This document shows positions 142-57,035 of a stretch of 64,000 nucleotides of DNA, one piece after another (the first letter of the stretch is position 1; each line of letters starts with the position of its first letter). The position numbers and the translations under genes were made by a program. Source of the DNA: Candidatus Flemingiibacterium merdigallinarum (GTDB lineage: Bacteria > Bacillota > Clostridia > Oscillospirales > CAG-272); the NCBI GenBank assembly GCA_904386005.1, contig CAJFKR010000001.1:37130-101129 (forward strand). The letters run 5' to 3'. The notes beneath the pieces are model-generated. The model had not been told where the DNA came from and ran no database searches. It was given only the letters and a program-made list of their open reading frames with translations.

Positions 142-164
142 TTGCGTATACTCCTATATATTGT

Positions 165-4748: not shown

Positions 4749-6536
4749 TCAGATGTTACGTCTGAACAGCCCGCCGGGGAGTGATTCGACCGCCGAATAG
4801 AGCTCGAGAATCGTCAATGTCGCGAGCACGTCGCTTGTCGGCAGGTCGTCGCGCGTGAGCTTGTCCGGTGAGACCGCGCTGCCATCTTCAGGCAGCAAGT
4901 TGTAAATTCGCAGCTGCAGCGGGTTTAGCCGGCTTTTATCAAAGCTCGGCTTTTCCGTGGGCGCGGCGTTATGGGACCGGCTCTGTATAGACCGGAAGCC
5001 GCTATTGTTAGGCAAAGAATTGGCGGGCTTAGCAGCTGAATCGCGCGGTCTGTCCTGTGCGGACTGTGTGCAGCCGTCACGGTCGTGCGAGGAAACGGCA
5101 GGCTTAGCAGCTGAATCGCGCGGTCTGTCCTGTGCGGACTGTGTGCAGCCGTCATGGTTGGGCGAGGAGACGGCAGGCTTAGCAGCTGAATCGCGCAGTC
5201 TGTCCTGTGCGGACTGTGTGCAGCCGTCATGGTCGTGCGAGGAAACGGCGGGCTTAGCAGCTGAATCGCGCGGTCTGTCCTGTATAGGCTGGGCAGCCTC
5301 GGTGTGGACGGCTTCATTTGACTTCATGTCAGCCGTGCCAGTGTCTTTGAGCAGCGCGGACGCCGGTTTGAGATTGTCACGCGGCACAGCATTGCCACGC
5401 GGCTCGTCAGCATTGGAACGCACGGTCTCCGGCGGTTTGACGCCGGTCGGTCTGCCGTCAGCATGGCGAGCCGCCACATTCGCTTTTGCCGCGCGCGGCT
5501 GCCCCTCCGGTTGGTCGGACTTTGCACTGCTTCTGTCACGTCCCGACGGGTCAGACAAATCGCGCTCGGGCAACGGCTTCGTCGCGCGCAGCTCATAATG
5601 AAGGTATTTCTCACTGCGGGTCAGCATTTCGTTCGGCGACAGGTTCATCTTGTCGGCGAAATCCCGAAGAATGTCCTCGGCGGAGGCGCACAGGTACGCG
5701 CCGTCGCGTATCAGCAGATTCGTCCCGCGGCTCTCGGGCGAGTTGACGTTGCCGGGTACGGCGTAGACCGGACGCCCTTGGTCAGCCGCGTGACGCGCGG
5801 TTATCAGCGCGCCCGAACGCTCGCCCGCCTCGACTACAAGCAGCGCGTCGGAAAGTCCGCTGATTATACGGTTGCGTATCGGGAACGAATACCTTGACGG
5901 AGGGGTGTTTGGCGCGAACTCGCTTATCAGCATACCGCGCTCGGCAATCTGATCGAGCATGATCTTGTTTTCAGCCGGATACGCGACATTGACGCCGCAC
6001 CCGAGCACCGCTATCGTCGGCGACTCGAAGTAGAGCGCGGTCTGGTTTGCGACCGAGTCAATTCCGTTCGCCGCGCCGCTGATTATGACCGCGTTGTGCG
6101 CGCAGAGCTTGCGCGTGATATCGAACGCGATGTGCTTTCCGTAGTTGGTCATCGCGCGCGTGCCGACGACGCCCACGCTGAATTTGTCGTCGAGCGCTTC
6201 AATGTTTCCTCTGCAATATAGGACAATCGGTCGGTTATACAGACCTTTGAGCCGCTCTGGATAATGTTCGGACGCGCAGCTGACTATTCTGATGCCGCCC
6301 ATGAAGCAGAATTCGATTATATCCTCCGCGCGACTGAGGTCATGGTCGGCAAAGCGCGAGATGAAGCTCGGGTCGAATTTACCTATACCGAGCAGCTCGT
6401 CGCGTCCGGCCTCGTAAATCCGTTTGGGCGGACATTCCTCGCCCGAGCGGGCGTAATACTCGATAAGCCGCACTCCGTCCGAGCTGCCCGCGCCGCAGCG
6501 CAACGCATACCATATCCAGTAGATGATATCCTTCAT
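4749..6536 (-). CDS. dprA: DNA-processing protein DprA/Smf with repeat-expanded linker
   Basis: It has the Rossmann-like DprA core (VGTRAMTNYG, IISGAANGIDSVANQTAL, FPIRNRIISGLS, VVEAGERSGALITA) and a C-terminal winged-helix-like tail. The start is moved from the ORF-track 6887 to the ATG at 6536 (MKDIIYW), which is preceded by AAGGAGGA. The upstream in-frame stretch runs through a repeat element. Confidence 0.85.
   Translation of the reverse strand: MKDIIYWIWYALRCGAGSSDGVRLIEYYARSGEECPPKRIYEAGRDELLGIGKFDPSFISRFADHDLSRAEDIIEFCFMGGIRIVSCASEHYPERLKGLYNRPIVLYCRGNIEALDDKFSVGVVGTRAMTNYGKHIAFDITRKLCAHNAVIISGAANGIDSVANQTALYFESPTIAVLGCGVNVAYPAENKIMLDQIAERGMLISEFAPNTPPSRYSFPIRNRIISGLSDALLVVEAGERSGALITARHAADQGRPVYAVPGNVNSPESRGTNLLIRDGAYLCASAEDILRDFADKMNLSPNEMLTRSEKYLHYELRATKPLPERDLSDPSGRDRSSAKSDQPEGQPRAAKANVAARHADGRPTGVKPPETVRSNADEPRGNAVPRDNLKPASALLKDTGTADMKSNEAVHTEAAQPIQDRPRDSAAKPAVSSHDHDGCTQSAQDRLRDSAAKPAVSSPNHDGCTQSAQDRPRDSAAKPAVSSHDRDGCTQSAQDRPRDSAAKPANSLPNNSGFRSIQSRSHNAAPTEKPSFDKSRLNPLQLRIYNLLPEDGSAVSPDKLTRDDLPTSDVLATLTILELYSAVESLPGGLFRRNI
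5023..5290. repeat. 75-bp in-frame tandem repeat (~3.6 copies) inside dprA
   Basis: The unit GGCTTAGCAGCTGAATCGCGCGGTCTGTCCTGTGCGGACTGTGTGCAGCCGTCA... repeats directly. It encodes DRPRDSAAKPAVSSHDHDGCTQSAQ units between the DprA core and the C-terminal domain. Confidence 0.9.
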
Positions 6537-6589
6537 TAATGGGACGTCCTCCTTTGTTGTTCGGTATTTAGGTGATTGCATAAGTGCGA

Positions 6590-6865
6590 AAGTGTTCGTT
6601 TTTATGTGGGAAGCACCTGCGAGCTGCTGACGCGCGAGCTTTTGAGGCAGCTCGGAAAAAGGCGTCTTGCCATCATTTCGACAAGCGCAGCTTGTCGAAA
6701 TGTAAGCGCAGCTTGTCGAAATGTAAGCGCAGCTTGTCGAAATGTGACCCCCCGCCGCTCCCATACGGCGGCTCGATTTGTGCGTGGTCGTTTGGAGCTT
6801 ATGGTGTATGTTCGTTGACTGCTTAATTGCATAACTATAATTTCCGTCGAACTCATGGCGCGTTG
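6590..6865 (+). repeat. Large structured repeat (family L), copy 2, internally deleted, with 3 x 21-bp hairpin units
   Basis: The 5' nested hairpin GGGAAGCACCT..GAGCTGC..GCAGCTC..AAAAAGGCG resembles copy 5. The 3' block is CCGCCGCTCCCATACGGCGGCTCGATTTGTGCGTGGTCGTTTGGAGCTTATGG...CGTCGAACTCAT. The unit AGCGCAGCTTGTCGAAATGTA occurs 3 times at 6684-6746. Confidence 0.7.
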
Positions 6866-9007: not shown

Positions 9008-9200
9008 GAAAGTGGTTCTGGTTTAAGTGAGAGCTTATATAAGAGTGGTCTGCCGCGCAGCGGCAGAGAGTGAACATGACTTTGTCTTTGACAAAGTCAT
9101 GTGTGGTCATCCACTTCGCGGAGAGCTTTGGTCGGAATTCGCCGCAGGCGAATTCCGGTGCGGGCTGTTTGCGATGGCGTGGCGGGGGAGTGAGCGGAGA
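9008..9200 (+). repeat. Hairpin-array repeat (family H), single arm, variant with 13-bp-stem hairpin
   Basis: Contains AAGAGTGGTC-TGCCGC-GCA-GCGGCA-GAGAGTG, then ACATGACTTTGTC-TTT-GACAAAGTCATGT, then GGAATTCGCC-GCA-GGCGAATTCC. It is near-identical to 11085-11220. Confidence 0.8.
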
Positions 9201-11054: not shown

Positions 11055-11410
11055 AAAGAGTGGTCGGTTTCGCGAAGCGGCAGAGAGTGGGGAGCGGACA
11101 TGACTTTGTCTTTGACAAAGTCATGTGTGGTCATCCGCTTCTCGGAGAACTGGCACAGGAATTCGCCGGAGGCGAATTCCTGTGTGGGCTGTTTGCGATA
11201 ACAGGGAGGGGGAGACGGCACGAACAGTTATTACATTGAAGAAACCGCCAATTTAATATCTGTGCGGTGACGTTGAGTTGATTTGAAATTCGCCGCAGGC
11301 GAATTTCTTCCTCATCTGTCCGCCGAAGGCGGACACCACTCTCCACTCTCTCGACTTCGCGCGGCGAAGTCGAGACCACTCTCTGCCGCGAAGCGGCAGA
11401 CCACCCTTTT
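11055..11410. repeat. Hairpin-array repeat (family H), two convergent arms
   Basis: The left arm is the same variant as 9008-9200. The right arm in reverse complement reads GGTGGTC-TGCCGC-TTC-GCGGCA-GAGAGTGGTCTCGACTTCGCC..., ending in GAAATTCGCC-TGC-GGCGAATTTC. Confidence 0.85.
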
Positions 11411-11444
11411 GTTAGAACCACTATTTTGTTTTACGCGGTTGATT

Positions 11445-15578: not shown

Positions 15579-15815
15579 GAATTAGGAGTTAGGAGTTAGG
15601 AGTTAGGAGTGGAGGAAGAAATTTGCCGGAGGCAAATTTCAATTAATTAAAATATATGGTTGAGCTGACTCTGTAATAATTTTAGTATAATAATATGCAA
15701 AAATCATGAAATTTTTGATAATAAGTTGTAAATAAGCGGCACGCCGCTCCACGTATTAAAATAGGAATTCGCCTTTGGCGAATTCCTACCGCAGCTCTCT
15801 GCGAAGCTGTGAGCG
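15579..15815. repeat. Hairpin-array repeat (family H), two arms
   Basis: The left arm has (TTAGGAGT)x4 then GAAATTTGCC-GGAG-GGCAAATTTC. The right arm in reverse complement reads CACAGCTTCGC-AGA-GAGCTGCGGTAG-GAATTCGCC-AAAG-GGCGAATTC. Confidence 0.8.
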
Positions 15816-17759: not shown

Positions 17760-17820
17760 GACTGCTATTTCCTTTCAGAAGCAAAATTATTCGATATAAA
17801 GTATTGTAAATACATTATAA

Positions 17821-18162
17821 TAACGTGAGTTCTTTGGTTTGGTACTGCGAGATTGTTTGCTTTCACTGGGGGAGGCGCCTTTTGAAAAAGGCACCTCCCC
17901 CAGACCCCCACCGCGAAAACTTTTTATAGGCTTGGGCAAAACATAATTGTTTATAACTGCGCAATTATTTTATTTCTGCTTGTCGTCAGAAACCACAGTG
18001 ATGCGCCGCTTAACGCATCCGCACCTCCGGCGAGGTGCGGATGCTTGGGGCCCCGCTCCCCATACGGCGGCTCGGTTTCTACGTGGTTGTTTGGAACTTA
18101 TAGCGTTTGTTTATCTAAAAATGTTTGATTATATTGCTATAATTTCAATCGAACTCACATTA
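17821..18162 (+). repeat. Large structured repeat (family L), copy 3, with inverted termini
   Basis: The termini are TAACGTGAGTTC ... GAACTCACATTA. The internal blocks are collinear with the copies at 29.4 and 30.9 kb. The variable slot holds the hairpin GCATCCGCACCTC-CGGC-GAGGTGCGGATGC. The 3' end is duplicated (GAACTCACATTATA x2, 18151-18178). Confidence 0.8.
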
Positions 18163-18367
18163 TAGAACTCACATTATAATAGATACGCGGTATTAAAACG
18201 TTATTTTTTTGTAAGAAACCGCTTCGACTGTGCCAAATATGACTGTGCCGAACACGACTTCGTCGTATATTAAAATACCGCGCTCCGGTTGGGATGCCTT
18301 CCGTTTTTAGTATTGCTTTTATGCGACCTTAATATTCGGCAGGATTTCCGCCGTAACGGCTTCTCGG

Positions 18368-20085: not shown

Positions 20086-20357
20086 GACCATACACCTTCG
20101 ATTTGAGCTGACCCTATGCGCGCTCTCTCCGGCACACGCTCGGGACAGGCAGCCTCGCGGCACATAAAAGTAACCGCTTAATGCTGCTTGGTTCCCCACC
20201 TGACATGGTTCACGGCCTTTCATTGCGCGAGACCCATCCGTCAACACGTATAATCCGGAGCGCAGACCACACAGAATCAGCCCTCGTCGAAGGAATCCAC
20301 CCCTGCTGCAGCGGATTGCAGGTACAAGGCACCGCTAATTCCCCGGCTGGTATGGCC
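20086..20357 (-). ncRNA. ffs: Signal recognition particle RNA, long Bacillus-type (~270 nt)
   Basis: The minus strand contains GGTGCCTTGTACCTGCAATCCGCTGCAGCAGGGG (Alu-domain 5' region) and CCATGTCAGGTGGGGAACCAAGCAGCATTAAGCGG (domain IV; compare E. coli GGUCAGGUCCGGAAGGAAGCAGCC). It sits immediately upstream of dnaX as in Bacillus. A 17-nt inverted repeat (ACAAGCTATAAAATAAG) plus a T-run flank it as a precursor stem/terminator. End coordinates are approximate. Confidence 0.85.
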
Positions 20358-20634: not shown

Positions 20635-23361
20635 TCATGCCGCGGGCATATTCATCCGCGTTTTTATGACGGCGACTGTTATAAACAGCGCGAGCGAGGC
20701 AAGTGAAATCGCCGCGCCCAGTATAAAGCCGGGCGGGGTGTAGGTTATAGTCAGGCTGTCAACATCCCGCGGCAGTTCAATCAGCGTGAGCGCGTCGAGC
20801 GCCTCGCGCACCGAGCCGGAGGGGAGCGCGTTTCCATCCGCGCTGATATGGAGCCCGTCGCTGTAGGGCAGAGTGAGCAGCAGGCGGCGGATATTCGGGT
20901 CGGATATCGACACTGTCAGCGTCGAGCCGGAGAGAGTGGTGCGCGCTCCGCCGAGCTTTTCGACCGCCGAGCTGAGCGCGTCGAGATTCTCGCTTCGGAT
21001 GTGCAGCCGGTCGATTTCGATTTCATAATCCGATTCGAGCAGGAGTGTGACTCGCTCGCCGTCCTCACAGTATCCGAGCGGGATCACGCCCTGCGTGTAG
21101 CCGTCGAAAACGCTGCCGCGCGCCTCGCCGTTTACAGTGAGGCGCACATATTGCAGCCGCGGCAGCTCGGCGTACATTACGACCGGACGGCCGTTTCCGA
21201 CGAAGTTTACCTCGATTCGGTTCGTACCCGCGTCGATTTCATACTCGACCGGCTCGAAGATTTCAGAATCGCAGCCGAGCAGCGCCGAGTAGAGCGACTC
21301 GACATTGTCGAGCGGGATTCCGGTCAATGACAGCTCATCGAGCTTGTCCGACCACACCGGTATCGCGAGGTCGAGCGCGGCTCGGTTCTCGTACACGCCG
21401 TCGACCGTGTAAGCCAGCAGCTCGCCGTCGGCTCTTATGCAGTCGTCGCCGACAAGATAGCGTATGCCGAGCAGGCTGTCAGCCGCGAGCGAGCCGCCGC
21501 CGTTGTAGCTGACATACGCGCGGTCAGCCGGAAAGCCGAGTCGCTGCAGGAATACCGCGTCGGACAGCTTCATTGACGACGAGTAGTGGCTGACACTATT
21601 GTAGCCGAGCAGCAGCGAGTCGTTGAAGCTGCGCGGCTCGAGCAGCTCGCAGCGGTAGAAGCCGCCGTCGGACAGATGGTCGGCGGCGTCAAGGCGGGCG
21701 GCGTTCGTGTCTACGAACTCGCGATAGGCGGCGGCGCTCGAAGCGTCGCCGTAGCAGCCCGCGACGCTGTCAAGCGTGAGCGCGGCGCTGAATACGAGCT
21801 CGCCGCAGAGCAGCAGCGACACGGCGAGTCGGGCGATAACGCCGGATTTACGAGCGACGCCGTTTTTGTGAGCGCCGGATATGCCGGACAGGAACAATGA
21901 ATACAGGGCTATGAGCAAGAAATTCAGGATGATAATCGGCTTTGTGAATCTACCGTCTCCTGCGAGTGTGAGCGACGCTCCGGAGAAGCATAATATCGCG
22001 GCGATGACTGCCGGTCTCATGTCCGAGCGCTCGAGCCGGTTTCGCGCGGTGATTATCAGGCTGAACGAAAGCAAAAACGAGTAGCGGTAGCCGAACCAGG
22101 TCGGCGGGTTGAACAGGTGCCAAGCGAGGTTGAGCGGCGCGACAAAGCAGCTCGCGACGAGGGCACCGAGCAGCAGTATATGCGCGACCCGCTCACGCAG
22201 CGGCGCGGTGCGGTCGAACAAATAGGCGAGCGCGAGTATCGCGACTCCGACGCCGCAGTATATATTCGGCAGCCCCGCGGCGTAGTCGGCGGCGTTCGCG
22301 GAGCCGACAAACAGTCGACTGAAAAGCTCGTCCAGCCGGAAGCTCTTATCGAAGCCGATCAGAATATAGAAGTGCGCGCCGGTCGCGCAGAGCGCGGCGG
22401 CGAGGAGCAGTGTGCGCGGGATTCGCGCGGGGATATTTCGGCGGGCGGAGCCGTCGGTAGACGGGATATTGTCGGCAGCCGATCGCGCTGACCCGAGCGG
22501 TGCGGAATCTGAACTGAGTGTCATGGAATCTGACCCGCGTGGTGCGGAATCTGACCCGCGTGGTGCTGACATCGTGCTGAGCGTCGTGGAATCTGACCCG
22601 AGCGTCGCGGGCATCGCGACGCTCGAACCGGTGCGCGAGTATATGTCCCACAGAAATATCGCCGCGGCGGCGGACACAATCAGCAGGTACATCCGCACAT
22701 ATTCGGGCGACATAAGGTCGGGCGGCTCGACCTTGCCGCCGCTCATAGACAGCCCGACCGGAATCAGCAGGACCGCGTTCAGCCCTCCGGCGACAAGCGA
22801 CGATATCGCGAAGCGTATACACGAGGTCGCAAGCATTCGCGCCGGATGTGTTTCGCGCAGCAGCGCGTACAGGAAGTATACCACACTGAATATGCACAGC
22901 ATATAGCCGATGTAGTAATTACAGAATATCGCTCCGGCGAGCGAGAGTATATACAGCAGGAATTTCCCCCTATATATCAGCCGCTCGATTCCGAGCGATA
23001 TCAATGGCAGCAGCACCAGCGCGTCGAGCCACATTATATTTATCGAATACAGTGTGAAATACGCCGAGAAGCTCCAGGCGAGCGACAGCGCGAGGTTTGC
23101 CGCGCCGTTTGTGCCTCTCGCCGACAGGTAGTATGACATCGTGAGCGCGGCGAGCGACAGCTTTAGTATATACAGCACCGACACTGCCTCGGGCAGATAT
23201 TCAAGCGGGAACAGCAGAAATATCAGATTGAGCGGACTCGCGAGGTAGTAAGCCGCGAGCGAATAGATATCTCCGCCGATTGATTTGTGCAGGCTGTAGA
23301 ACAGTCCGTCCGACAGCAGCGACTTCACGTCTCCGAAAAAGCAGGAGTACTGACTGTACAT
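20635..23361 (-). CDS. yfhO: YfhO-family polytopic membrane glycosyltransferase (true start probably upstream, about 23505)
   Basis: 908-aa ORF with many TM helices and the N-terminal region SDMYSQY...LAAYYLASPLNL typical of YfhO. The in-frame upstream sequence encodes the expected first TM helix but contains no ATG/GTG/TTG (see findings). A low-complexity SAPRGSDS loop is inserted. Confidence 0.8.
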   Translation of the reverse strand: MYSQYSCFFGDVKSLLSDGLFYSLHKSIGGDIYSLAAYYLASPLNLIFLLFPLEYLPEAVSVLYILKLSLAALTMSYYLSARGTNGAANLALSLAWSFSAYFTLYSINIMWLDALVLLPLISLGIERLIYRGKFLLYILSLAGAIFCNYYIGYMLCIFSVVYFLYALLRETHPARMLATSCIRFAISSLVAGGLNAVLLIPVGLSMSGGKVEPPDLMSPEYVRMYLLIVSAAAAIFLWDIYSRTGSSVAMPATLGSDSTTLSTMSAPRGSDSAPRGSDSMTLSSDSAPLGSARSAADNIPSTDGSARRNIPARIPRTLLLAAALCATGAHFYILIGFDKSFRLDELFSRLFVGSANAADYAAGLPNIYCGVGVAILALAYLFDRTAPLRERVAHILLLGALVASCFVAPLNLAWHLFNPPTWFGYRYSFLLSFSLIITARNRLERSDMRPAVIAAILCFSGASLTLAGDGRFTKPIIILNFLLIALYSLFLSGISGAHKNGVARKSGVIARLAVSLLLCGELVFSAALTLDSVAGCYGDASSAAAYREFVDTNAARLDAADHLSDGGFYRCELLEPRSFNDSLLLGYNSVSHYSSSMKLSDAVFLQRLGFPADRAYVSYNGGGSLAADSLLGIRYLVGDDCIRADGELLAYTVDGVYENRAALDLAIPVWSDKLDELSLTGIPLDNVESLYSALLGCDSEIFEPVEYEIDAGTNRIEVNFVGNGRPVVMYAELPRLQYVRLTVNGEARGSVFDGYTQGVIPLGYCEDGERVTLLLESDYEIEIDRLHIRSENLDALSSAVEKLGGARTTLSGSTLTVSISDPNIRRLLLTLPYSDGLHISADGNALPSGSVREALDALTLIELPRDVDSLTITYTPPGFILGAAISLASLALFITVAVIKTRMNMPAA

Positions 23362-25543: not shown

Positions 25544-25890
25544 TCAAGGGATAGTATCTGCGAGACCGACGCTGGGCAAAATCATTTGTGGTCGAATTGA
25601 GACGCGCAGCGTCTCAATTCGAGACTGCGGCGGGGACGCCCCCGCGGGCAGAGTCAAGGGCGGGGACGCCCCCGCGGGCGGAGTCAAGGGATAGTTTCTG
25701 CGGGGTGAAAGCGAGCGGAATCATTCGTGGTCGAATAAACTCGCGCAGCGAGTTTATTCGAGAGTGCGGGCAGAGTCAAGGGCGGGGACGCCCCCGCGGG
25801 CAGAGTCAAGGAATAGATTCTGCGGGGCTAAAGCGAGTAGAATCATTTATGGTCGAATAAACTCGCGCAGCGAGTTTATTCGAGACTGCG
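25499..25890 (+). repeat. Tandem structured repeat (family G), three units of ~125-140 bp
   Basis: Each unit has three parts. First, 1-2 copies of GCGGGGACGCCCCCGCGGGCAGAGTCAAGG. Second, GATAGTTTCTGCGGGG..AAAGCGAG..GAATCATT.GTGG. Third, TCGAA-stem-GCA-stem-TTCGAGA.TGCG. See findings for the compensated stem changes. Confidence 0.9.
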
Positions 25891-27538: not shown

Positions 27539-27711
27539 GTTCTATCCTCGCTTATATTATTAATGGCAATCTTATTTTACCACATCCGACGCAAATATGC
27601 AAGCGTGTTTTCGATTTATACTTGTATAAAATGAGTAAATATAGCCGTGACGAGCTGCTTTAGGCAGCTGCGAATAAATATTCACATACATACTGTCACA
27701 AAATTTATAAT

Positions 27712-27762
27712 AATTATTCAAATCCACTTGACATAGCAGCCCTGATGTGAGATAATATATAT
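27712..27762 (+). promoter_or_regulatory. Sigma-A-type promoter cassette (TTGACA-N17-TGAGATAAT) upstream of SBP paralog 2
   Basis: AATTATTCAAATCCACTTGACA-N17-GATAATATATATA, with -35 at 27728-27733 and -10 at 27751-27756. The same cassette recurs at 29822-29872. Confidence 0.5.
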
Positions 27763-27875
27763 AAACAAAATAGCTCTCACGGAACTAAGGTCGCAATTTT
27801 ATTCGATATTGACAACAGCCGGCACATCGCGTGCTCGAGGTTTTCCGACGAGGGTATAAAGAAAGGATGATCTTG

Positions 27876-29317
27876 ATGAAAAAGCTGTCTTTGATACTCG
27901 CTCTCGCCGTTCTGGCGTCCGCGGCTCTGTCCTGCGGCGAGACGGTCACACACGAGGTTACTACCCTGACCGACGAGGTTGAGCCAGTCGAAGAAAATCC
28001 CGACCCATTGCCTGAGGATCTGGCTTTCGACGGGCAGACTGTGAACTTCTACTCCTGCGACTATATCTACAATCGCGATTACGCCGTCAACTTCGTCACA
28101 GAGGAGAACGGCGAGGTGCTCAACGACGCGCAGTACTACACCGAGCTGTGGGTAGAGGATCGGCTCGGTATCGAGATTGTCGAAACGCTCGGTCCGGAGG
28201 TGGTCGACGACTTCGACGCCGAAATAAGAAGCCTGATAATGGCGCAGGACACTACCTACGATATATACACGAATATGGACCGCTATATGATAACCGCGGT
28301 CATGAACGGATGTTCATCGCGACCTCCGACCTGCCCTATGTCAATCTCGACGCCGAATACTGGAACCCGAAAGCGACCTCGCGTTTTTCGGTCGGGCACA
28401 AGATCTACTATACAATGACCTCGTTCAATCTCTGCTCGTATTCGAATACAAACGCCATATTCATGAACGCCGATATCGCCGACGAAATGCGGCTTGACGG
28501 CATATACGACCTCGTCCGCGACGGCAAGTGGACTTATGACAAGCTCAAGGAATACGCGCAGGCGGCCTATCGCGACCTCAACGGCAACACCGCCCCCGAC
28601 CTCGGCGACCAGTTCGGCTTCTGCCCCGGCTCGGGCAAAAACGCGTGGGTAAACGCTGTCGTCGGCGCGGGTCTGTCGGACGACATCATGCACAAGGACT
28701 CGAACGATTACTTCGTATACGAGCTGTCCGATAAGATGTACGACGTGCTCGAAATGTACTATAATATGGTACACGAGCAGTATGTGTACAACGGCGAGGG
28801 AGGGGTGAAGTTCGAAGAAACTCCGCATCTGTTCCACGACGGCAAGCTCTCGGATATGCTCGGCTACCGCGAGCTGGAGTTCGATTTCTCGGTGCTGCCG
28901 ATTCCGAAGTATGACGAGAGCCAGGACAGCTACTACTGCCGTACATACGACACCTTCTTTACAATGGCGCCGACCACCTGCACAAAGACCGAGCTGTGCG
29001 GCGCGGCGCTCGAGGCGCTCTCGTACAAGGCGCACACCGACCTGCTTCCGGCGTATATCAACGACACCCTGCAAGTAAAGCTGGTGCGCGACGAGGAGTC
29101 GGCCGAAATGATCCGCATCGCGCTCGACACGCGCACAATCTCACTCGCCGAAGCGTATATGTTCAGCCTGTGGGGCAATTATAATCTGTACAGCAATTAT
29201 ATCTGCGGCACGAACTCCAGTCCCGCCTCCTATATTGATTCGGTCAAAACGCAGACTGAAACGCAGATAGCCGAGATGAACGAGACCTTCAAGGAATTGA
29301 TTGACAGACAGCGGTGA
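27876..29317 (+). pseudogene. Solute-binding lipoprotein, LplA-type (paralog 2), interrupted by a 1-nt deletion near 28310
   Basis: ORFs 27831-28418 and 28148-29317 are the N- and C-terminal parts of one SBP (lipobox LSC). Paralog alignment predicts ...ITAVMNG/MFIATSDLPYVNLDAEYWN. The DNA reads AACGGATGTTC where AAC-GGN-ATG-TTC is needed. Confidence 0.75.
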
Positions 29318-29356
29318 GAAGATAACGCCGACCGTTTCGGGCTGTATATTGTATAT

Positions 29357-29688
29357 TAACGTGAGTTCGATAGAGATACTGCGATACTGTTTGCTCTCAC
29401 TGGGGGAGGCGCCTTTTGAAAAAGGCGCCTCCCCCAGACCCCCTCCGCGAAAACTTTAATAATTTAGGTCAAAACATAATTGTTTATGACTGCGCAGAGA
29501 TTATATATCTGCTTGCTGTTAGAACAACAGAGATGCGCCGCCTTTGGCAGGTTCGTCCGAAGGACGAAACTGCTGGGGCCACTGCTTCCCAACCGGCGGC
29601 TGGTTTCTACGTGGTCGCTTGAAGCTTATATTGTTTGTTCAGTTGATTGCGTAATTACATTGTTATAATTCTCATCGAACTCACGTTA
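29357..29688 (+). repeat. Large structured repeat (family L), copy 4 (reference copy)
   Basis: The termini are TAACGTGAGTTCGAT ... ATCGAACTCACGTTA. It has a perfect 17-bp-stem hairpin CTGGGGGAGGCGCCTTTT-GA-AAAAGGCGCCTCCCCCAG. The GCGCCGCC...GGCGGC pair encloses the hairpin CAGGTTCGTCC-GAA-GGACGAAACTG. Confidence 0.85.
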
Positions 29689-29821
29689 TACGACTATATG
29701 GATGAATCGACTGTGGCAGTGGCGATTCATCTTTAATTCATCTTTACTATTGTCAACGCGCCGCGGGTGGATATGTTCCGCCGCGGGAGATTTGTCACTG
29801 TCCTGCCATATTATATCTACA

Positions 29822-29872
29822 AATTATTCAAAACCACTTGACACCCTATCGCATATATGAGATAATATATAT
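29822..29872 (+). promoter_or_regulatory. Sigma-A-type promoter cassette upstream of the sugar-phosphate isomerase gene
   Basis: AATTATTCAAAACCACTTGACA-N17-GATAATATATATA, with -35 at 29838-29843 and -10 at 29861-29866. It is near-identical in its flanks to 27712-27762. Confidence 0.5.
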
Positions 29873-29905
29873 ACTTAATATTAAGCAAAGAGAGGTATAC
29901 ATAAT

Positions 29906-30820
29906 ATGAAATTTGGAATGAGCGCGTACTGCCTTACTCCGGCTATGGAGCAGGGGCGGATGAGCGTATATGACGTGATCGATTTCGCGAAGGCGCATGG
30001 CTGCGAGCATATCGAGTTCGTGCCGTTCAGCCTGCCGTTTGTCGACCCGCAGAGCTCGAAGCTCAATGAATCGCTCTGCGACAGCGTCCGCGAGAAGTGC
30101 GAGAGCGTCGGGATTGAAATCTCGACCTATTCGGTCAACGCCGACCTTTTGAAGCCGGACATTGCTGACCGCGGACGCGAGATCGAGCGGGTCAAGCGGC
30201 ATATCGACGCCGCCGCGCGGCTGGGACTAAAGCGTATGCGTTATGACACATCGTCGTTCCGCCGCCCGTTCGAGACTAACACGGTCGAAAATTTCTACCG
30301 AGAGCTGCCGATGATGATCGAGGGCATCCGCGAGCTGCACGACTACACAAGCGAGCGCAAAATCACGACCACGCTCGAGAATCACGGCTTCTTTGTCAAC
30401 GGCTCCGACCGCATTCTGCACCTGATACAGTCGACCGGCTTTGACGACATCAAGATGACGCTCGACGTCGGCAACTTCCAGTGCGTGGACGAGGACAGCG
30501 TAGCCGCCGTCAAGAAGTGTCTGCCCTATGCCGAAATCATTCATCTGAAGGATTTCTATGTCCGCAAGAAATCGGCTCTGCCGGGTCAGACCGAGATGTT
30601 CAACTGCAACATGGGCAGCTGGTTCGAGACTATGGGCGGACGTATGCTCCGCGGCTCGATACTCGGTCAGGGCGACCTCGATATCTGGGAGATACTGCGC
30701 GTCGTCAAGGCGTCCGGCTTCGACGGCTATATCTCGCTCGAGTTCGAGGGCATGGAGCCCTGCGAGCAGGGCACCGAAATCTCGCTCGCTATGGCGCGCG
30801 CAATCTGGGAGCGGGTCTGA
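29906..30820 (+). CDS. Sugar-phosphate isomerase/epimerase (xylose isomerase-like TIM barrel)
   Basis: 304 aa. Motifs are typical of the AP_endonuc_2/TIM-barrel family (LENHG, HLKD, ISLEFEG). GAGAGG RBS. Confidence 0.85.
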   Translation: MKFGMSAYCLTPAMEQGRMSVYDVIDFAKAHGCEHIEFVPFSLPFVDPQSSKLNESLCDSVREKCESVGIEISTYSVNADLLKPDIADRGREIERVKRHIDAAARLGLKRMRYDTSSFRRPFETNTVENFYRELPMMIEGIRELHDYTSERKITTTLENHGFFVNGSDRILHLIQSTGFDDIKMTLDVGNFQCVDEDSVAAVKKCLPYAEIIHLKDFYVRKKSALPGQTEMFNCNMGSWFETMGGRMLRGSILGQGDLDIWEILRVVKASGFDGYISLEFEGMEPCEQGTEISLAMARAIWERV

Positions 30821-30867
30821 TTAATAGCGGTCGAGAACATATTGGCGAAATGTTAGTATAATCAAAC

Positions 30868-31296
30868 TAACGTGAGTTCGACGACATACTTTTGATTAAT
30901 ACTGCTATGTTGTTTGTTTTCACTGGGGGAGTGTGCCTACGAGTTGCTGACGCAACTCGGAAAAAGGCACCTCCCCGGCACTTAGGCGAGCTTGCTCGCC
31001 TAAGTGCTGACCCCACACCGCGAAAACTTTAATAATTTAGGGCAAGGCATAGATGATTATAACAACGCAGAGATTATATTACTGCTTGTTGTTTGAAACC
31101 ACAGAGATGCGCCGCACATCGACTTTGCATCTCGGAGAGATGCAAAGTCGTGGCAGGTTCGTCCGCAGGACGAACCTGCTGGGGCCACTGCTTCCCAACC
31201 GGCGGCTGGTTTCTACGTGGTCGTTTGAATCTTATATTGTTTGTTCAGTTGATTGCGTAATTACATTGTTATATAATTCTTATCGAACTCACTTTA
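30868..31296 (+). repeat. Large structured repeat (family L), copy 5 (largest, extra nested hairpins)
   Basis: The termini are TAACGTGAGTTCGAC ... ATCGAACTCACTTTA. Extra hairpins are GAGTTGC-TGAC-GCAACTC, GGCACTTAGGCGAGC-TT-GCTCGCCTAAGTGCT and CGACTTTGCATCTC-GGAG-AGATGCAAAGTCG. It ends 14 nt before the GGAGGA RBS of the next gene. Confidence 0.85.
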
Positions 31297-31322
31297 AATC
31301 ATACACTTTCGGAGGAATACCT

Positions 31323-32774
31323 ATGAAAAACAAGGCAATTTCACTCGTGCTGCTCCTGTCAATGCTGCTCGTGTCGCAGTCCTGCGGCGAGGCTGCCACC
31401 GACGGCGGCGACGCCACCGTCTCCGATGATGTGACCACCGCCGCGCCCGAGACCGACTATATCGAAACGCTTGGAGAAGAGGATTTCGGCGGCGCGGAGT
31501 TCGTGATTTTAGCGCATGAAGCCGAGGCTTTCCCGAACCTCGGCTCGGGCGAGCTGACCGGCGACCCGGTCAACGACGCGCTCTATAAGCGCGAGCAGGA
31601 CATTTCCGAGCTGTACAATGTCACGATTGTACACGACGGTCCGTCCGACCGCGGCGTGCTCAAGAACAACCTACAGAACAGCGTGCTCGCCGGAGACGAG
31701 GCGTACCAGCTCGTCATGACGTCGATGGCAGACGGTATCAACACGCTGATGCCGAACGGTATACTCTATGAACTGAACTCGCTGCCCTCACTCGATTTGT
31801 CGAATGAGTGGTGGAACCAGAATCTAAACCGAAATCTGAATTTTTCGGGCAAGGTGTATACGGCGACCGGACCTATCTGCCGTGTATACTACAACACGCC
31901 GATGGTCACCGCGTTCAACACGCAGCTTTGCGAGAATTACGGCTTCGAGAACCTATACGATGTGGTCGAGTCGGGCAAGTGGACAATAGACAAATTCGGA
32001 GAGCTTATGAAGGTTGGCACCGAGGATTTGAACGGCGACGGAATCTACGACGACACCGACCGCTACGCGCTGCTGCTCGACGACGAGGACGGCAAGGCGT
32101 TATTCGTATCCGCAGGCGGCAAGCTGACCGAAATTGCCGAGGACGGCAGCTATTATCTCGACCTCGCGTCCGAGAAGAATCTGTCGCTGCTCGACCGGCT
32201 CGTCGGCATTTTCGGCGACCGCTCGACGTCATATCATGTGCCGTCGCTCGACGCCACGACCGAGAAGATGTTTATGGAATCGCGGTCGACGTTTGTAATT
32301 ATTTCTATCGGCAACATAATCAGCCACTTCCGCGATATGCAGGCTGACTACGGTATAATCCCGATGCCAAAAGCCGACGAGTCGCAGGAGGACTACATCA
32401 CCTACGGCAACCCGTGGTTCGCGTCCGGAGTCGCGGTGCCGGCGAACTGCTCGACGCCCGAGATGACCGGACTTGTCATGGAAGCGCTCGCGTACATATC
32501 CCACCGCGACCTGGTTCCGGCGATATACGATGTGACCTTACAGGAGAAGCTGACTCGCGACGAAAAGTCAAAGACGATGCTCGACCTTATTTACCGCGAC
32601 ATATACTTCGACTTAAACTCCATTTACAACTTCGGCGACTCTGCGAACAAGCTCCGTCTTGCCGCGGTCGGCAGCGCGACGACTTCATTCGCGACGACCT
32701 GGGCGTCGATTGAGGCGGCGGCGAAATCCGCGCTTAACGAGATAGTCGAAGCCGAAGCCATAGCGGGAGAGTAA
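31323..32774 (+). CDS. Extracellular solute-binding lipoprotein, LplA-type (paralog 3)
   Basis: The start is moved from 31053 to the ATG at 31323 (MKNKAISLVLLLSMLLVSQSC lipobox), which follows GGAGGA. The upstream in-frame stretch is repeat family L. It shares the SBP motifs SNEWWNQ, DLNGDGIYDDTDRY and DYGIIPMPKADE. Confidence 0.85.
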   Translation: MKNKAISLVLLLSMLLVSQSCGEAATDGGDATVSDDVTTAAPETDYIETLGEEDFGGAEFVILAHEAEAFPNLGSGELTGDPVNDALYKREQDISELYNVTIVHDGPSDRGVLKNNLQNSVLAGDEAYQLVMTSMADGINTLMPNGILYELNSLPSLDLSNEWWNQNLNRNLNFSGKVYTATGPICRVYYNTPMVTAFNTQLCENYGFENLYDVVESGKWTIDKFGELMKVGTEDLNGDGIYDDTDRYALLLDDEDGKALFVSAGGKLTEIAEDGSYYLDLASEKNLSLLDRLVGIFGDRSTSYHVPSLDATTEKMFMESRSTFVIISIGNIISHFRDMQADYGIIPMPKADESQEDYITYGNPWFASGVAVPANCSTPEMTGLVMEALAYISHRDLVPAIYDVTLQEKLTRDEKSKTMLDLIYRDIYFDLNSIYNFGDSANKLRLAAVGSATTSFATTWASIEAAAKSALNEIVEAEAIAGE

Positions 32775-33097
32775 AGAAGAGTGGTCTCGGAACTGCCGTA
32801 GGCAGTTCCGAGAGAGTGGAGAGTGGTCTGCCGCGGAGCGGCAGAGAGTGGTCTCCGCCTTCGGCGGAGAGCTGCGGTAGAAAAATTGCCTACGGCAATT
32901 TTTCAAAATTTATAAGAAAACGGCGACATTATAAAGAGACGACTATATTAAAAGAGACGACAACGATAAAAATAGTCGACCGTTTTTTCTGCCGCGGAGC
33001 GGCAGATTCAATCAAAAATTCCCGCAGGGAATTTTTGTACCGCAACTCCTCACTCCTCACTCCTAATTCCTCACTCGAAACACCTCACTCCTAACTC
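32775..33097. repeat. Hairpin-array repeat (family H), two convergent arms
   Basis: The left arm starts right after the stop codon with three GAGAGTGGTC(TC)+hairpin units, then GAGCTGCGGTAG-AAAAATTGCC-TAC-GGCAATTTTT. The right arm in reverse complement has (TTAGGAGTGAGG)n, then GCGGTAC-AAAAATTCCC-TGC-GGGAATTTTT. Confidence 0.85.
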
Positions 33098-39005: not shown

Positions 39006-39186
39006 CTTAAGAGTTAAGAGTGGTCTCCGCTGCGCGGAGAGAGTGGTCTCGCCTTCGGCGAGAGAGTGGTCTCCGCTTCGCGGAGAGCTGTGGTGGAAAA
39101 ATTCCCTGCGGGAATTTTTCAATTATCAAAACGCGTATGCGTGGATTGCGGCTTTGCTTTCTGCCAAAACTCCTCACTCCTAACTT
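39006..39186. repeat. Hairpin-array repeat (family H)
   Basis: It reads TTAAGAGTTAAGAGTGGTCTCCGC-TGC-GCGGAGA GAGTGGTCTCGCC-TTC-GGCGAGA GAGTGGTCTCCGC-TTC-GCGGAGA GCTGTGGTGG-AAAAATTCCC-TGC-GGGAATTTTT. A remnant opposite arm is AACTCCTCACTCCTAACT. Confidence 0.85.
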
Positions 39187-40491: not shown

Positions 40492-41076
40492 ATGATAAAA
40501 GGGGCAGGTGTTGTCACAATGAAGCTACTTAAAAAGACGCCGGTCGCGGTCATAATCATGCTCGCGGCGGTGCTGCTGTCATTTTTCTTCGGCAGCGTAT
40601 ACTCGCTGTCACGCGAGCGCGGGGCGATAATGGACGGATTCGAGTCGGGCACAGACGAGATAGTGTCGATACAATATGAGCTCGACTACATCGCGCAGAA
40701 CGCGCGCAATCTCGTATCCATAGCCGGAAACTATCCGGACATGGCTGACTCCGACGCGCTCGATTCTACCAAGACGGCGCTGAATGAACTGACCTCTGCC
40801 AAGTCAGTTTCCGCCAAGGCGGCGGCGCTCGACAAGCTGGTGTCAGCTGCCGAGGTCCTGCTCGCGAGCCTCAATCCGGCTGACATGAAGCCGGTCGACC
40901 GCGACTATCACTCGACTATCGGCAGTGACATAAAGGCGTCGCTCAGCCGCATATCGTCGAGCAGCTATAATGACGCGGTCGCCGAGTTCAACGAGCGGCT
41001 GGAGAGTTTTCCGGTGAATCTGACCGCGGGACTGTTCGGTGTTACCGCGCTCGAGCCATTCGAGATCACCGAATGA
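40492..41076 (+). CDS. LemA-like membrane protein
   Basis: It has an N-terminal TM helix (VAVIIMLAAVLLSFFFG) and the C-terminal motif YNDAVAEFNERLESFPVNLTAGLFGV..EPFE, typical of LemA. The start is ambiguous (40492 or 40519). Confidence 0.55.
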   Translation: MIKGAGVVTMKLLKKTPVAVIIMLAAVLLSFFFGSVYSLSRERGAIMDGFESGTDEIVSIQYELDYIAQNARNLVSIAGNYPDMADSDALDSTKTALNELTSAKSVSAKAAALDKLVSAAEVLLASLNPADMKPVDRDYHSTIGSDIKASLSRISSSSYNDAVAEFNERLESFPVNLTAGLFGVTALEPFEITE

Positions 41077-41081
41077 ACTGC

Positions 41082-41235
41082 TCGCGGCAGAGCGAAACGG
41101 TCGCGGCAGAGCGAAACGGTCGCGGCAGAGCGAAACGGTCGCGGTGGAGCGAAATGGTCGCGGCAGAATGAAACGGTCTCGGCAGAGCGAAACGGTCGCG
41201 GCAGAGCGAAACGGTCGCGGTGGAATGAATCGGCT
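41082..41235 (+). repeat. 19-bp tandem repeat, 8 copies (degenerate copies to about 41295)
   Basis: The unit is CGCGGCAGAGCGAAACGGT, with variants CGCGGTGGAGCGAAATGGT, CGCGGCAGAATGAAACGGT and CTCGGCAGAGCGAAACGGT. It starts 6 nt after the lemA-like stop. Confidence 0.9.
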
Positions 41236-41436
41236 GCAATGAGGTGAAGCAGTCGGGTCGCCGCGATTCGGTCGCGGCGGAATGAATCGGTCACATCAGC
41301 CAAGATTGAAATATATTTTGCAAACTTCACAATATATTTGAGGACACGACCATAATTCGAGTGGTATAATAATATTACTGAAACCACAGGTGAGCGGCTT
41401 CTGCCGTCACTTCAAACTTGATTAAGGAGAATCGCA

Positions 41437-42810: not shown

Positions 42811-43311
42811 GCGGGGCTGACGCGGATATACAGCGGGATTATGTATGCCGTATCCGCGGATTTGACATACAGGCTGTATCCGTGGCTTTCATATAATTGC
42901 AAATACAAAAGGGAAGGCGATGCCGTTATGGCTGCCTTCCCTTGTGTTATGTCTGCTGTCGGACGGTGGATTCGACTGAATATACTGTATATGCGGATGA
43001 ATATACAGCCGGATATACGAGTATATATACAGCGCATATGCGTGTATTCATATAGATGCGGTCACATGCGAAAACTGTGTGCGTTGAATCTGCGCTTGGT
43101 CGGAGCCGACTGCCATGTCACAATATTGCAGTCGCGGCTGGTGTGAATCTGCGCTCGCGGACGATTGTATATCGCCTACCGGCGGTTATGCGGAGAATAA
43201 ACCCGCACACTAAACCCACGCTCGGTCGGAATTGACTGCATTGTCACAACCTCGCCGTCGCGGTGCGGACAGCATGAATATCCGCTCGCAGTCGTAGACA
43301 TCCTGTTGCAC

Positions 43312-45594
43312 TTACTCCGCAAATACGACCCGCACGCTGAAGCTGCGCTCGGTCGGAGTCGAATCCCATGTCACGACCTCGCCGTCGCGGCGCGCGGTCA
43401 AGGTGAACACGCGCTTGCCGTCGGCGTCGTATATCGACGTCGATGCGGTCTCGCCGTCGCGGAGATTGTATACGACGAACTCGCAGCCGTCGAGATAGTC
43501 GTATTCGAAATTGCCCGAAAAGTTGCCGTACGCGACAATCGAGCCCTCGCGGGCGAGCAGCGGCAGCTCGAGATAGCCGCAGCGTCGGTGGTAATACCTG
43601 CCGCCGACATACCGCTCGCCGGTTATTATGTCCTGCCAGATACCGTCGGGCAGATAGAAGTCGACGCCGCCCGACTCGTCGAACACCGGCGCTACGAGCA
43701 GATTGTCGCCGAGCATATACTGCGTGTCGAGTCGACGCGCCGCGAGGTCGTCTGGAAACTCGAGCAGCATCGCGCGCATCATCGGAAGACCGGTCGTATG
43801 CGTCTTTACTGCCTGCGACCACAGATAGGGCATCAGCCGACCTTTCAGCTTCGTAAAGAATCGCAGCACGTCGACCGACTCCTCGTCGAACAGCCACGGC
43901 ACGCGGTAGGACGAGCTGCCATGCAGCCGACTGTGCGACGACAGCAGTCCGAACGCCGCCCAACGCTTGTACACATCGGGTGACGCGGTCGCCTCGAAGC
44001 CGCTGATATCGTGGCTGTAGTAGCCGAAGCCGCAGAGTCCGAGCGACAGTCCGCCGCGCAGCGTCTCTGCCATCGACACATACTCGGCGGTGCAGTCTCC
44101 GCCCCAGTGTACCGGGAATTTCTGCGAGCCGGTCGTCGCGCTGCGGGCGAACAGGCAGGCTTTGCCGTCGCCGTAGTATTCGCACAGCAGCTCGTACACT
44201 GTCTTGTTGTAGAGATAGGTGTAGTAGTTGTGCATATCGATTGGGTCGGAGCCGTCATGATATACCGCGTCGGTCGGTATGCGCTCGCCGAAGTCGGTTT
44301 TGAGATTGGTCACGCCCATGTCGAGCAGTTTGCGCAGCTTCGATTTGTACCAGTCGCGGGCCGCCGGATTCGTAAAGTCGACTATAGCCAGTCCCGGCTG
44401 CCAGAGGTCGCACTGGAACACGCCGCCGCCGCGCGTTTTTACAAGATACCCGCCGTCGCGCGCTTCGTCGAACAGCGGCGAAAGCTGCGCGATGTACGGG
44501 TTTATCCACACGCAGACCGCAAGACCGCGCTCGCGCAGGCGTTTCAGCATAGCCTCGGGGTCGGGGAACTGCCGCCTGTCCCACTCGAAGTCGCACCAGC
44601 GGAACTCGCGCATCCAAAAGCAGTCGAAGTGGAACACCTGCAGCGGTATGTCGCGCTCGGCCATGCCGTCGATGAACGAGTTTATCGTCTCCTCGCTGTA
44701 GTCGGTCGTGAACGAAGTCGACAGCCACAGACCGAACGAATACTCGGGCACGAGCGGCGGTTTTCCGGTCAACTTTGTATAATTCATGACCGCGGACGCC
44801 GGACTGCCGCCGCCGATTACATAGTATTCGAGCGACTCGCTGGGGACTGTGAAGCTGACTCCCGACACCGAGTCGGACGCGGCTTCAAACGACACATAGC
44901 CGCTTGTGTTCACAAACACGCCGTAGCCGCGGTCGGACAGGTAGAACGGCACGCATTTGTAGCTCTGCGCCGAGCCTGTGCCGCCGTCCGAGTTCCACAT
45001 CTCGACCGCCTGTCCGTTCTTGACGAACGGCGTGAACTTCTCGCCGAATCCATATACGCACTCGCCGACTCCGAGCGAGAGCTTTTCCTGAATGTATGCC
45101 GGCGCGTCGTCCGGCTTATCGAAGAAGCGCGGGACCACGGCGCGTCCGGTCGGCGGCATATCGTTGACTATGTACGAAAGCGAGCGTGCGCCGCTCGACG
45201 TCAGCTTGCGCGGGATACCGGCATTGTCGAAGAACTCGACTCTCCAGCCGCCGAGGTCAATACGCACCGAAGTGCGCCCCGAGACAAGCGTCACCGCTTT
45301 GTCGTCGACTATGATGTCGGGCGTGAAGCTGTCGTCGCGCGCAAGCTCGAAGCCTTGGCTACGGCGCGCTCCGGCGTAGTGCACGACCCGCACGCCGATG
45401 ACGTTTTCGAGGTAGGAGAAGAACGTCACCTCGAGGTTCGGACCTCCGAGCGTCATGCCGCGGTTGTAGATTTTGGACGGCGTCGCGAGCAATGTGACCG
45501 AATGCTCGTCGCGCCGCAGGACTTCATAGGCTTCGGTGGCGTAGCTTATGTCATAGCCTTTCTTTCTGAGCCACAATCCGTCGTTGAATATCAT
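43312..45594 (-). CDS. GH31 alpha-xylosidase/alpha-glucosidase (YicI-like)
   Basis: The nucleophile motif is NLKTDFGE and the acid/base motif is VHWGGDC. It has the GH31 N-terminal beta-sandwich. The start is moved to the ATG at 45594 (MIFNDGLW) after GAGAGGAAG. Confidence 0.9.
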   Translation of the reverse strand: MIFNDGLWLRKKGYDISYATEAYEVLRRDEHSVTLLATPSKIYNRGMTLGGPNLEVTFFSYLENVIGVRVVHYAGARRSQGFELARDDSFTPDIIVDDKAVTLVSGRTSVRIDLGGWRVEFFDNAGIPRKLTSSGARSLSYIVNDMPPTGRAVVPRFFDKPDDAPAYIQEKLSLGVGECVYGFGEKFTPFVKNGQAVEMWNSDGGTGSAQSYKCVPFYLSDRGYGVFVNTSGYVSFEAASDSVSGVSFTVPSESLEYYVIGGGSPASAVMNYTKLTGKPPLVPEYSFGLWLSTSFTTDYSEETINSFIDGMAERDIPLQVFHFDCFWMREFRWCDFEWDRRQFPDPEAMLKRLRERGLAVCVWINPYIAQLSPLFDEARDGGYLVKTRGGGVFQCDLWQPGLAIVDFTNPAARDWYKSKLRKLLDMGVTNLKTDFGERIPTDAVYHDGSDPIDMHNYYTYLYNKTVYELLCEYYGDGKACLFARSATTGSQKFPVHWGGDCTAEYVSMAETLRGGLSLGLCGFGYYSHDISGFEATASPDVYKRWAAFGLLSSHSRLHGSSSYRVPWLFDEESVDVLRFFTKLKGRLMPYLWSQAVKTHTTGLPMMRAMLLEFPDDLAARRLDTQYMLGDNLLVAPVFDESGGVDFYLPDGIWQDIITGERYVGGRYYHRRCGYLELPLLAREGSIVAYGNFSGNFEYDYLDGCEFVVYNLRDGETASTSIYDADGKRVFTLTARRDGEVVTWDSTPTERSFSVRVVFAE

Positions 45595-56961: not shown

Positions 56962-57035
56962 TGGGGATTTGTGTAATGGCAGCACAGCAGACTCTGACTC
57001 TGTATGTGGGAGTTCGAATCTCTCATCCCCAGCCA
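56962..57035 (+). tRNA. tRNA-Gln (anticodon CTG), CCA-encoded
   Basis: 74 nt. The acceptor stem is TGGGGAT/ATCCCCA (U1-A72, as in bacterial tRNA-Gln). It has a 3-bp D stem GTG/CAC, anticodon stem GCAGA/TCTGT with loop CTCTGAC, T arm GGGAG-TTCGAAT-CTCTC, discriminator G and CCA. Confidence 0.9.

Follow-up and report, generated by a model that had tools for sequence, protein, structure and literature searches.

The window, by which we mean the whole 64,000-nt stretch of DNA analysed here, contains five intergenic copies of a short repeat, together with the RNA genes and other repeats listed in Table 1. The neighbours of these copies have little in common: plsX, an unnamed gene of ~600 aa (4749–6537), ybaB, a sugar-phosphate isomerase gene and a lipoprotein gene. 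A search for repeats, an alignment of the five sequences and a profile scan of the window recovered all five collinear + strand copies that had been claimed in a first-pass annotation made from the sequence alone, and the collinear blocks that they share read as described there. The profile scan put their limits at 155–380, 6580–6855, 17822–18162, 29357–29688 and 30868–31295. One diagnostic block (TTTNTNCGTGGTNGNTTGRANCTTAT) occurs four times in the window against 0.00 expected, and a second (CNCCGCGAAAACTTT) four times against 0.97 expected.

Two of the copies (4 and 5) are complete. Copy 1 is degenerate, with both terminal repeats absent and nothing at the apex of its second hairpin (P2, described below). 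Copy 2, also degenerate, lacks the left repeat, carries a threefold tandem expansion of a 21-nt unit and retains just a remnant of its right end (6847–6858). The right end of copy 3 is followed by a 14-nt tandem duplication (TAGAACTCACATTA), which this strain shares with its nearest relatives (L024–L026) and which is absent from the orthologous copies of L019, L027 and L028. The termini reported for three copies, TAACGTGAGTTCGA ... TCGAACTCAC(G/A/T)TTA, are found in copies 3, 4 and 5.

Table 1. Coordinates of the repeat copies, their component parts and other features of the window.
Feature	Position	Strand	Remarks
Copy 1	155–380	+	Profile score 146 bits; between trmFO/gid and plsX
Copy 2	6580–6858	+	Profile score 72 bits
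Copy 3	17821–18176	+	Between dnaX and ybaB
Copy 3, left terminal repeat	17821–17834	+
Copy 3, right terminal repeat	18149–18162	+
Copy 3, extra 14-nt duplication	18163–18176		Right end
Copy 3, flanking repeat TATAATA	17816–17822 and 18175–18181
Copy 4, complete element	29357–29688	+	Profile score 332 bits, model positions 1–317
Copy 4, left terminal inverted repeat TAACGTGAGTTCGAT	29357–29371	+	Exact match
Copy 4, hairpin P1 CTGGGGGAGGCGCCTTT / AAAGGCGCCTCCCCCAG	29400–29437	+	17-bp stem
Copy 4, conserved block CCGCGAAAACTTT	29445–29457	+	Zero diversity in model columns 101–110 (copies at 32 different sites)
Copy 4, long imperfect hairpin P2, ACaAC-AGAGAT-GC-GCCGCC ... GGCGGC-TG-GTTTCT-AC-GTGGT	29524–29615	+	Apex is the 'variable slot'
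Copy 4, apical module hairpin CAGGTTCGTCC-GAAG-GACGAAACTG	29548–29572	+	19 in family copies, 0 outside
Copy 4, most conserved interior block, 40 nt, CTGCTTCCCAACCGGCGGCTGGTTTCTACGTGGTCG	29582–29617	+	Column diversity 3–4% vs 20–30% in neighbouring segments
Copy 4, predicted outward promoter: TTGATT, 15-nt spacer, TG-T-TATAAT	29643–29669	+
Copy 4, right terminal inverted repeat ATCGAACTCACGTTA	29674–29688	+
Copy 5, complete element	30868–31296	+	Profile search
Copy 5, nested hairpin in P1 loop	30940–30959
Copy 5, additional hairpin 3′ of P1	30977–31008
Copy 5, two apical P2 hairpins	31120–31150 and 31154–31178
Copy 5, predicted promoter TTGATT-17 nt-TATAAT	31249–31277	+	Promoter scan, 10/12 matches
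Second repeat family	2040–2110, 2257–2298, 9034–9082, 11137–11181, 11281–11343, 11367–11415, 15759–15807, 32844–32883, 39060–39101		Both orientations
Tandem array, period 19 nt	41037–41299
Tandem array, period 75 nt	4997–5283
Tandem array, period 21 nt	22488–22610
Tandem array, period ~122–139 nt	25580–25890
Tandem array, period ~126 nt	43075–43394
Tandem array, period 125 nt	61819–62023
71-nt repeat	27693–27763 and 29803–29873
Large bacterial SRP RNA	20088–20355	-	190.7 bits; directly upstream of dnaX
tRNA	56962–57032	+

Modular organisation of the element

Read from the left, the element consists of a terminal repeat, a variable spacer, a hairpin (P1), a CCGCGAAAAC(TTT) block, a variable segment, a long imperfect hairpin (P2), an A+T-rich stretch that holds the motifs TTGATT and TGnTATAAT, and the right terminal repeat. 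It is 300–430 bp long and has no open reading frame conserved across copies, with indels that are not multiples of three. Coding potential was rejected on these grounds: an SD-TTG reading frame that can be followed in copy 4 is broken in other copies by 1-nt and module indels.

Seven variants of the apical stem of P1 occur across the family, including GGCGCC/GGCGCC, GGTGCC/GGCACC, GGAGCC/GGCTCC, GCCCC/GGGGC and GACCC/GGGTC, and all are complementary bar one C-A intermediate. The consensus form of P2 is ACCAC-AGAGAT-GC-GCCGCC ... GGCGGC-TG-GTTTCT-AC-GTGGT; in the RNAalifold consensus its columns 182–200 pair with columns 224–244, with 97% of cells paired. The variable slot described earlier proved to be the apex of this hairpin, a correction to its nature that leaves its reported contents intact: the slot is empty in copy 1, holds one hairpin in copies 3 and 4 (a different one in each) and two in copy 5. 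Extra hairpins are also found in the P1 loop and directly after P1, and the nested hairpin said to lie inside the GGGGGAGG/CCTCCCCC stem is seen in copy 5.

The hairpin modules were considered as independent small mobile palindromes, an idea that we discarded: none was found away from family copies, and the sole module match scored outside the family (L020:1962) adjoins a short family fragment. We also set aside the idea that P2 arose when two degenerate terminal repeats came to abut, as ACGTGGTCGTTTGA resembles the terminal sequence ACGTGAGTTCGA too weakly to support such a claim.

Diversity is clustered along the element (lag-1 autocorrelation 0.27, compared with 0 ± 0.06 after shuffling; 0/2000). 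The terminal repeats show almost none, CCGCGAAAAC is invariant, and CTGCTTCCCAACCGGCGGCTGGTTTCTACGTGGTCGTTTG varies by 3–4%. Two interior blocks are conserved as tightly as the terminal repeats themselves.

Copy number, orientation and exchange of modules in the lineage

When metagenomes were scanned for one of the conserved blocks, 23 contigs were recovered, the majority of them terminating within the element. These contigs, with others obtained via neighbouring genes, make up 364 kb of lineage DNA, in which a profile search detected at least 46 distinct copies, often at contig ends. The proteins flanking the window copies are identical to those of GCA_019115025.1. Searches of 185,579 species-representative genomes gave no match to the first pattern and 55 single matches to an 18-nt core, all in unrelated GC-rich taxa and taken as chance; the whole element had no match in plasmid and phage collections.

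That every copy lies on the + strand is true of the window, where five out of five is in any case a weak signal (two-sided 1/16), but it is not a property of the family, because contigs L009, L011, L012 and L018 carry copies in opposite orientations within 2–3 kb of each other. The presence of both orientations on single contigs likewise rules out a replication-linked strand bias.

Orthologues of copy 3 occupy the dnaX-ybaB spacer in L019, L024–L028 and L084–L090. Among these orthologous copies the P1 stem varies between strains, and the P2 apex may contain hairpin C, hairpin B, both B and A, or none. That copies at one and the same site differ in their modules indicates an exchange between family copies, for which gene conversion is the probable route. 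Copies at different sites show a median difference of 17%. The family numbers dozens of copies per genome, which persist at orthologous sites while swapping modules.

Folding and covariation

With conserved blocks between its helices and variable hairpins at the helix tips, the element has the look of a structured RNA, and the first-pass annotation had called its core ncRNA-like. On this reading, P1 and P2, along with a terminal helix in which the two repeats pair, would belong to a + strand structured RNA, either a mobile RNA gene or a cis-regulatory RNA. The apparent constraint on the interior blocks would suit such a role, and the stems do stay complementary through sequence change. Both strands fold far better than shuffled sequences, with z-scores of −8 to −10, but this excess is expected of any element built from inverted repeats. 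The best hairpins are strand-symmetric, and mismatch types in P1 are balanced (13 G-U and 23 A-C among 404 Watson-Crick cells). In favour of an RNA, the P2 flanks and a helix downstream rely on G-U pairs that form on the + strand only (80 G-U vs 1 A-C, and 162 vs 11), but these helices sit in sequence rich in G+T, which readily yields pairs of this kind.

Covariation tells a similar story. For the core helices, the values observed across 21 sequences were reached by 65/500 and 111/500 shuffles, indicating no covariation beyond column composition. For the whole structure, 95.1% of cells were paired in 11 diverse full copies compared with 94.0 ± 0.4 after shuffling (0/500), and the covariation score was reached by 4/500 shuffles, although related sequences may outdo this control even when they lack any structure. 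The RNAalifold covariation term was +0.07 kcal/mol, so covariation contributes nothing to the consensus fold, and the palindromic hairpins are the one place where compensatory variants stand out clearly.

Comparison with Rfam 15 yielded no match to the element at gathering thresholds across the whole window and chance-level matches only when E values up to 10 were accepted for 29300–31350. Promoter and terminator scans found neither a promoter upstream of the structured part nor a terminator downstream of it, and the hairpins were rejected as intrinsic terminators because no T runs follow them on either strand. Copies lie sense or antisense to the surrounding operons. A riboswitch or leader role, suggested by three window copies that abut the start of a minus-strand gene, was dropped because the neighbouring genes are unrelated and their orientation to the copies is mixed. 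Taken together, these results make a functional RNA conceivable but poorly supported, and on balance unlikely. The hairpins are kept as symmetric palindromes, which may act at the DNA level or in RNA transcribed from either strand.

Terminal repeats shared with IS982-family elements

Viral contigs were scanned for the right end of copy 4 (ATCGAACTCACGTTA). Most matches were chance; at five loci (L117, L138, L139, L143 and L151) the sequence recurs in inverted orientation ~1 kb away, delimiting elements of 0.99–1.09 kb. A single open reading frame of ~300 aa lies between the ends of four of them, while that of L138 is disrupted. The two reading frames tested scored 276.5 and 266.5 bits against NCBIfam NF033520 (IS982 family transposase; cutoff 130) and also match Pfam DDE_Tnp_1_3. 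A search of plasmid proteins found relatives at ~57% identity annotated as 'IS982 family transposase'. In two such records, a plasmid of Bacteroides finegoldii (NZ_OY725921.1) and pLiLS1 of Leptospira interrogans (NZ_CP039260.1), the transposase gene lies between inverted pairs of ACGTGA(A/G)TTCGA that span 1033 and 1008 bp end to end. With no more than one mismatch, TAACGTGAGTTCGA stands at both ends of the five viral-contig elements and of L167 and L168, where family membership rests on NF033520 for the two reading frames tested and on RefSeq annotation for L167 and L168. The left repeat of copy 4 itself also bounds the IS982-family elements L117, L138, L143, L151 and L168.

Members of the IS982 family have a mean length of ~1 kb, terminal repeats of 11–32 bp and direct repeats of 2–10 bp, and 57/69 of them start with AC (PMC7335449). 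The repeat of the window element, ACGTGAGTTCGA(T), starts with 5′-AC, agrees with the partial consensus AC-N6-T and, at 12–13 nt (14–15 nt if TA is included), falls within the published range of 11–32 bp (PMC7335449). The same ACGTGAGTTCGA repeat is shared by the IS982 elements on pLiLS1, the B. finegoldii plasmid and five IMG/VR contigs, the terminal 12–15 nt of which, with their AC start, are identical to those of the window element or one base off. Both kinds of element have AT-rich flanks with short direct repeats, and both have an A+T-rich segment just inside the end, often with a −10-like box. The likeness stops after the terminal 14–23 nt: the window element has no transposase, measures 0.3–0.43 kb rather than ~1 kb and has an unrelated interior. 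The same ends are found on other short elements with unrelated interiors (L104, L135, L141, L162 and L014 125–303).

On this evidence, the repeat very probably represents a new family of IS982-type MITEs from an uncultured gut Firmicute, transposase-less and equipped with hairpin modules and a predicted outward promoter; its interior is unusually modular and in part under constraint. The first-pass annotation was right in kind, having described a multi-copy repeat with terminal inverted repeats of the MITE type, and wrong in family, having assigned it to IS630/Tc1-mariner, whereas all of the transposase-bearing elements found with these termini belong to IS982. Its statement that the repeat fits no named RNA or IS family survives as regards Rfam, plasmid and phage matches, but the ends do match IS982-family insertion sequences. 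Its report of no transposase in the window holds for the IS982 type, which is what our tblastn screen covered. Because neither the window nor the 364 kb of lineage DNA gave a tblastn match to an IS982-type transposase, we infer, rather than observe, a trans-acting enzyme in the host. Under the proposed mechanism, an IS982-family DDE transposase supplied in trans would recognise the ends of the element and move it into AT-rich intergenic DNA, with duplication of a few bases.

One of the short elements with the same ends, L014 125–303 (L014b), is ~180 bp long, has an unrelated interior and occurs in this lineage. It sits nested in the TATAAT/promoter region of a family copy with a perfect TATTATA on both sides, an arrangement suggesting that this transposition system was active in the lineage fairly recently.

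Target sites and insertion polymorphism

Among 17 elements with these ends, TA lies directly outside ACGTGAG / CTCACGT at 17/17 left and 16/17 right ends. Perfect flanking repeats of 6–7 nt, of the form TA-N(2-3)-TA, accompany six of the 17, examples being TATAATA (window copy 3) and TATATTA (the L117 element). Perfect repeats of at least 6 nt are thus present in 6/17 cognate pairs of flanks compared with 2.2% of non-cognate pairs, a result matched by 0/50,000 permutations. Clean flanking repeats are seen in four of eight lineage elements.

Related genomes are polymorphic for the insertion at two sites. In L172–L180, which are 92–97% identical to the window, a 70-nt spacer takes the place of copy 5, and alignments break at window positions 30866 and 31296. 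In this unoccupied allele (ATAATCAAATCATACAC) the insertion point lacks a TA, and AAA is the only sequence found on both sides of the element, although the junction is imperfect and the flank has locally diverged. In L091, the dnaX-ybaB spacer is 149 nt long and the element is absent. Among close strains we found no empty plsX or dnaX-ybaB sites, all being occupied. An empty allele does exist at the copy-5 locus, without the single TA that an IS630-type insertion would call for. The simplest reading of the flanks is that TA forms part of the terminal repeat (TAACGTGAG...) and that 2–3 nt of target would be duplicated; the same data can also be read as a 7-nt repeat of a TA-NNN-TA target with AC ends. 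Both lengths fall in the 2–10 bp span of direct repeats published for IS982.

The copy-5 site shows further variation. A strain that is 99% identical upstream (L016 / L093 3734–5400, compared with window 30820–31363) has an extra 1.6-kb lipoprotein paralogue at the place of copy 5, so that the site is known in three states: the paralogue, the window element and the 70-nt spacer. The left flank of copy 5 (window 30843–30869; AAATGTTAGTATAATCAAACTAACGT) resembles a degenerate right end of the family, with a TATAAT box followed by the repeat, and the 'empty' alleles (L172 ~3440–3470) retain ACATTATAATAATCAAATCATAC just upstream of the lipoprotein gene. This stretch may be a relic end acting as the native promoter.

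Might the repeat be a non-mobile, host-selected intergenic sequence, REP/BIME- or BOX-like, that serves mRNA stability or regulation, has spread by recombination and has ends that merely resemble those of IS982? Its modular make-up, with hairpins usable on either strand, would suit that role, as would its intergenic positions inside operons (e.g. dnaX-ybaB-recR), the way in which its copies have long been retained at orthologous sites while undergoing gene conversion, and its conserved interior blocks. Yet chance is an unlikely source of a 14–15 nt identity to true IS982 ends at each terminus, another element that has these ends and a perfect flanking repeat is nested in a family copy, and presence or absence varies among related strains. 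We consider this explanation improbable. The least tenable is the original proposal of an IS630/Tc1-mariner-type MITE that inserts at TA with TA duplication, which we regard as very improbable: its likeness to such MITEs lies in short terminal repeats beside TA, but the element falls outside the family by the family's own criteria, transposase-bearing elements with these ends are IS982, and a simple TA duplication is excluded by flanking repeats that exceed 2 nt (reaching 6–7 nt) and by an unoccupied allele that lacks TA at the insertion point.

Predicted outward promoter and conserved interior

A perfect TGnTATAAT lies 4–6 nt before the right repeat and points outward in 25 of 33 distinct right ends, a position that places the predicted transcription start inside the right repeat and running outward. 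Copy 5 owes its 17-nt spacing to 2 extra nt that other copies lack. Its −10 box stops 45 nt short of the start codon (ATG, 31323) of a lipoprotein-like gene that encodes 483 aa and has a GGAGG ribosome-binding site. In L023, a gene start lies directly past the right end. We infer from this arrangement that the element can supply a promoter where its right end faces a gene, and that copy 5 would do so for the lipoprotein-like gene. A crude call of open reading frames showed the orientation of copies to neighbouring genes to be mixed, so promoter delivery would be occasional and not the rule. Complete outward promoters have been described for the IS982 members IS1187, ISAba4 and ISAba825 (PMC9330008).

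A purely selfish MITE does not explain the conservation of the interior blocks. The nested element L014b lacks them, so they are not required by every element with these ends; they could be accessory transposition sites, could bind a protein upstream of the promoter or could belong to an RNA. A further proposal is that the whole conserved interior (P1, CCGCGAAAAC, P2 and the 40-nt CTGCTTCCCAACCGGCGGCTGGTTTCTACGTGGTCG) is functional cargo carried between IS982 ends, whether as a + strand structured RNA or as a regulated promoter cassette, and we think this doubtful. In its cassette version, a protein-binding site that includes the imperfect palindrome CCAACCGGCGGCTGG could lie upstream of the outward promoter. 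Were the cargo proposal true, transposition would spread a ready-made regulatory module through the genome.

Comparison with known systems and significance

Correia elements of Neisseria and the BOX and RUP elements of Streptococcus pneumoniae are, like the window element, intergenic, multi-copy and hairpin-forming. BOX is modular, and Correia elements can supply promoters or alter mRNA processing. All three differ from the window element in being unrelated to it in sequence and host; in Correia and RUP, moreover, TA is duplicated and the link is to IS families other than IS982.

IS982-derived MITEs are known already, for example MITECca01 from a Cardinium endosymbiont, which is likewise short and transposase-less, has IS982-family repeats and has been amplified in one lineage (PMC9769881). 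It differs from the window element in belonging to another host phylum, in taking its repeats from ISCca4 and in its length of ~240 bp, and the available portion of its description mentions neither modular hairpins nor an outward promoter (PMC9769881). The parental IS of MITECca01 is present in the same genome (PMC9769881), whereas none was found for the window element in 364 kb of lineage DNA.

In metagenome-assembled genomes, MITEs frequently go unnoticed or are wrongly classified, and they interrupt assemblies; many of the related contigs end within this element. The link with IS982 ends replaces the IS630 assignment and accounts for the TA found at the flanks. The family also marks intergenic sites at which genes may have gained an outward promoter, the clearest case being copy 5, upstream of a lipoprotein gene, where related strains lack the element. 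To our knowledge, little has been established about the mechanism of IS982 transposition; the interior blocks may reveal accessory sites for that process or a mobile regulatory module.

Other repeats in the window

A second interspersed intergenic repeat family occurs in the window as chains of short GC-rich hairpins with conserved linkers (GAGAGTGGTC and GAGCTGCGGTAG), often terminating in a terminator-like hairpin (AAATTCGCC-loop-GGCGAATTT). Six tandem arrays are also present, and in the one at 25.6 kb each unit contains a 12-bp hairpin. Finally, both copies of a 71-nt repeat carry TTGACA-17-GATAAT with TG before the −10 box; the second is situated between copy 4, which it closely follows, and the isomerase gene, which it precedes, and the repeat is probably a shared native promoter region.
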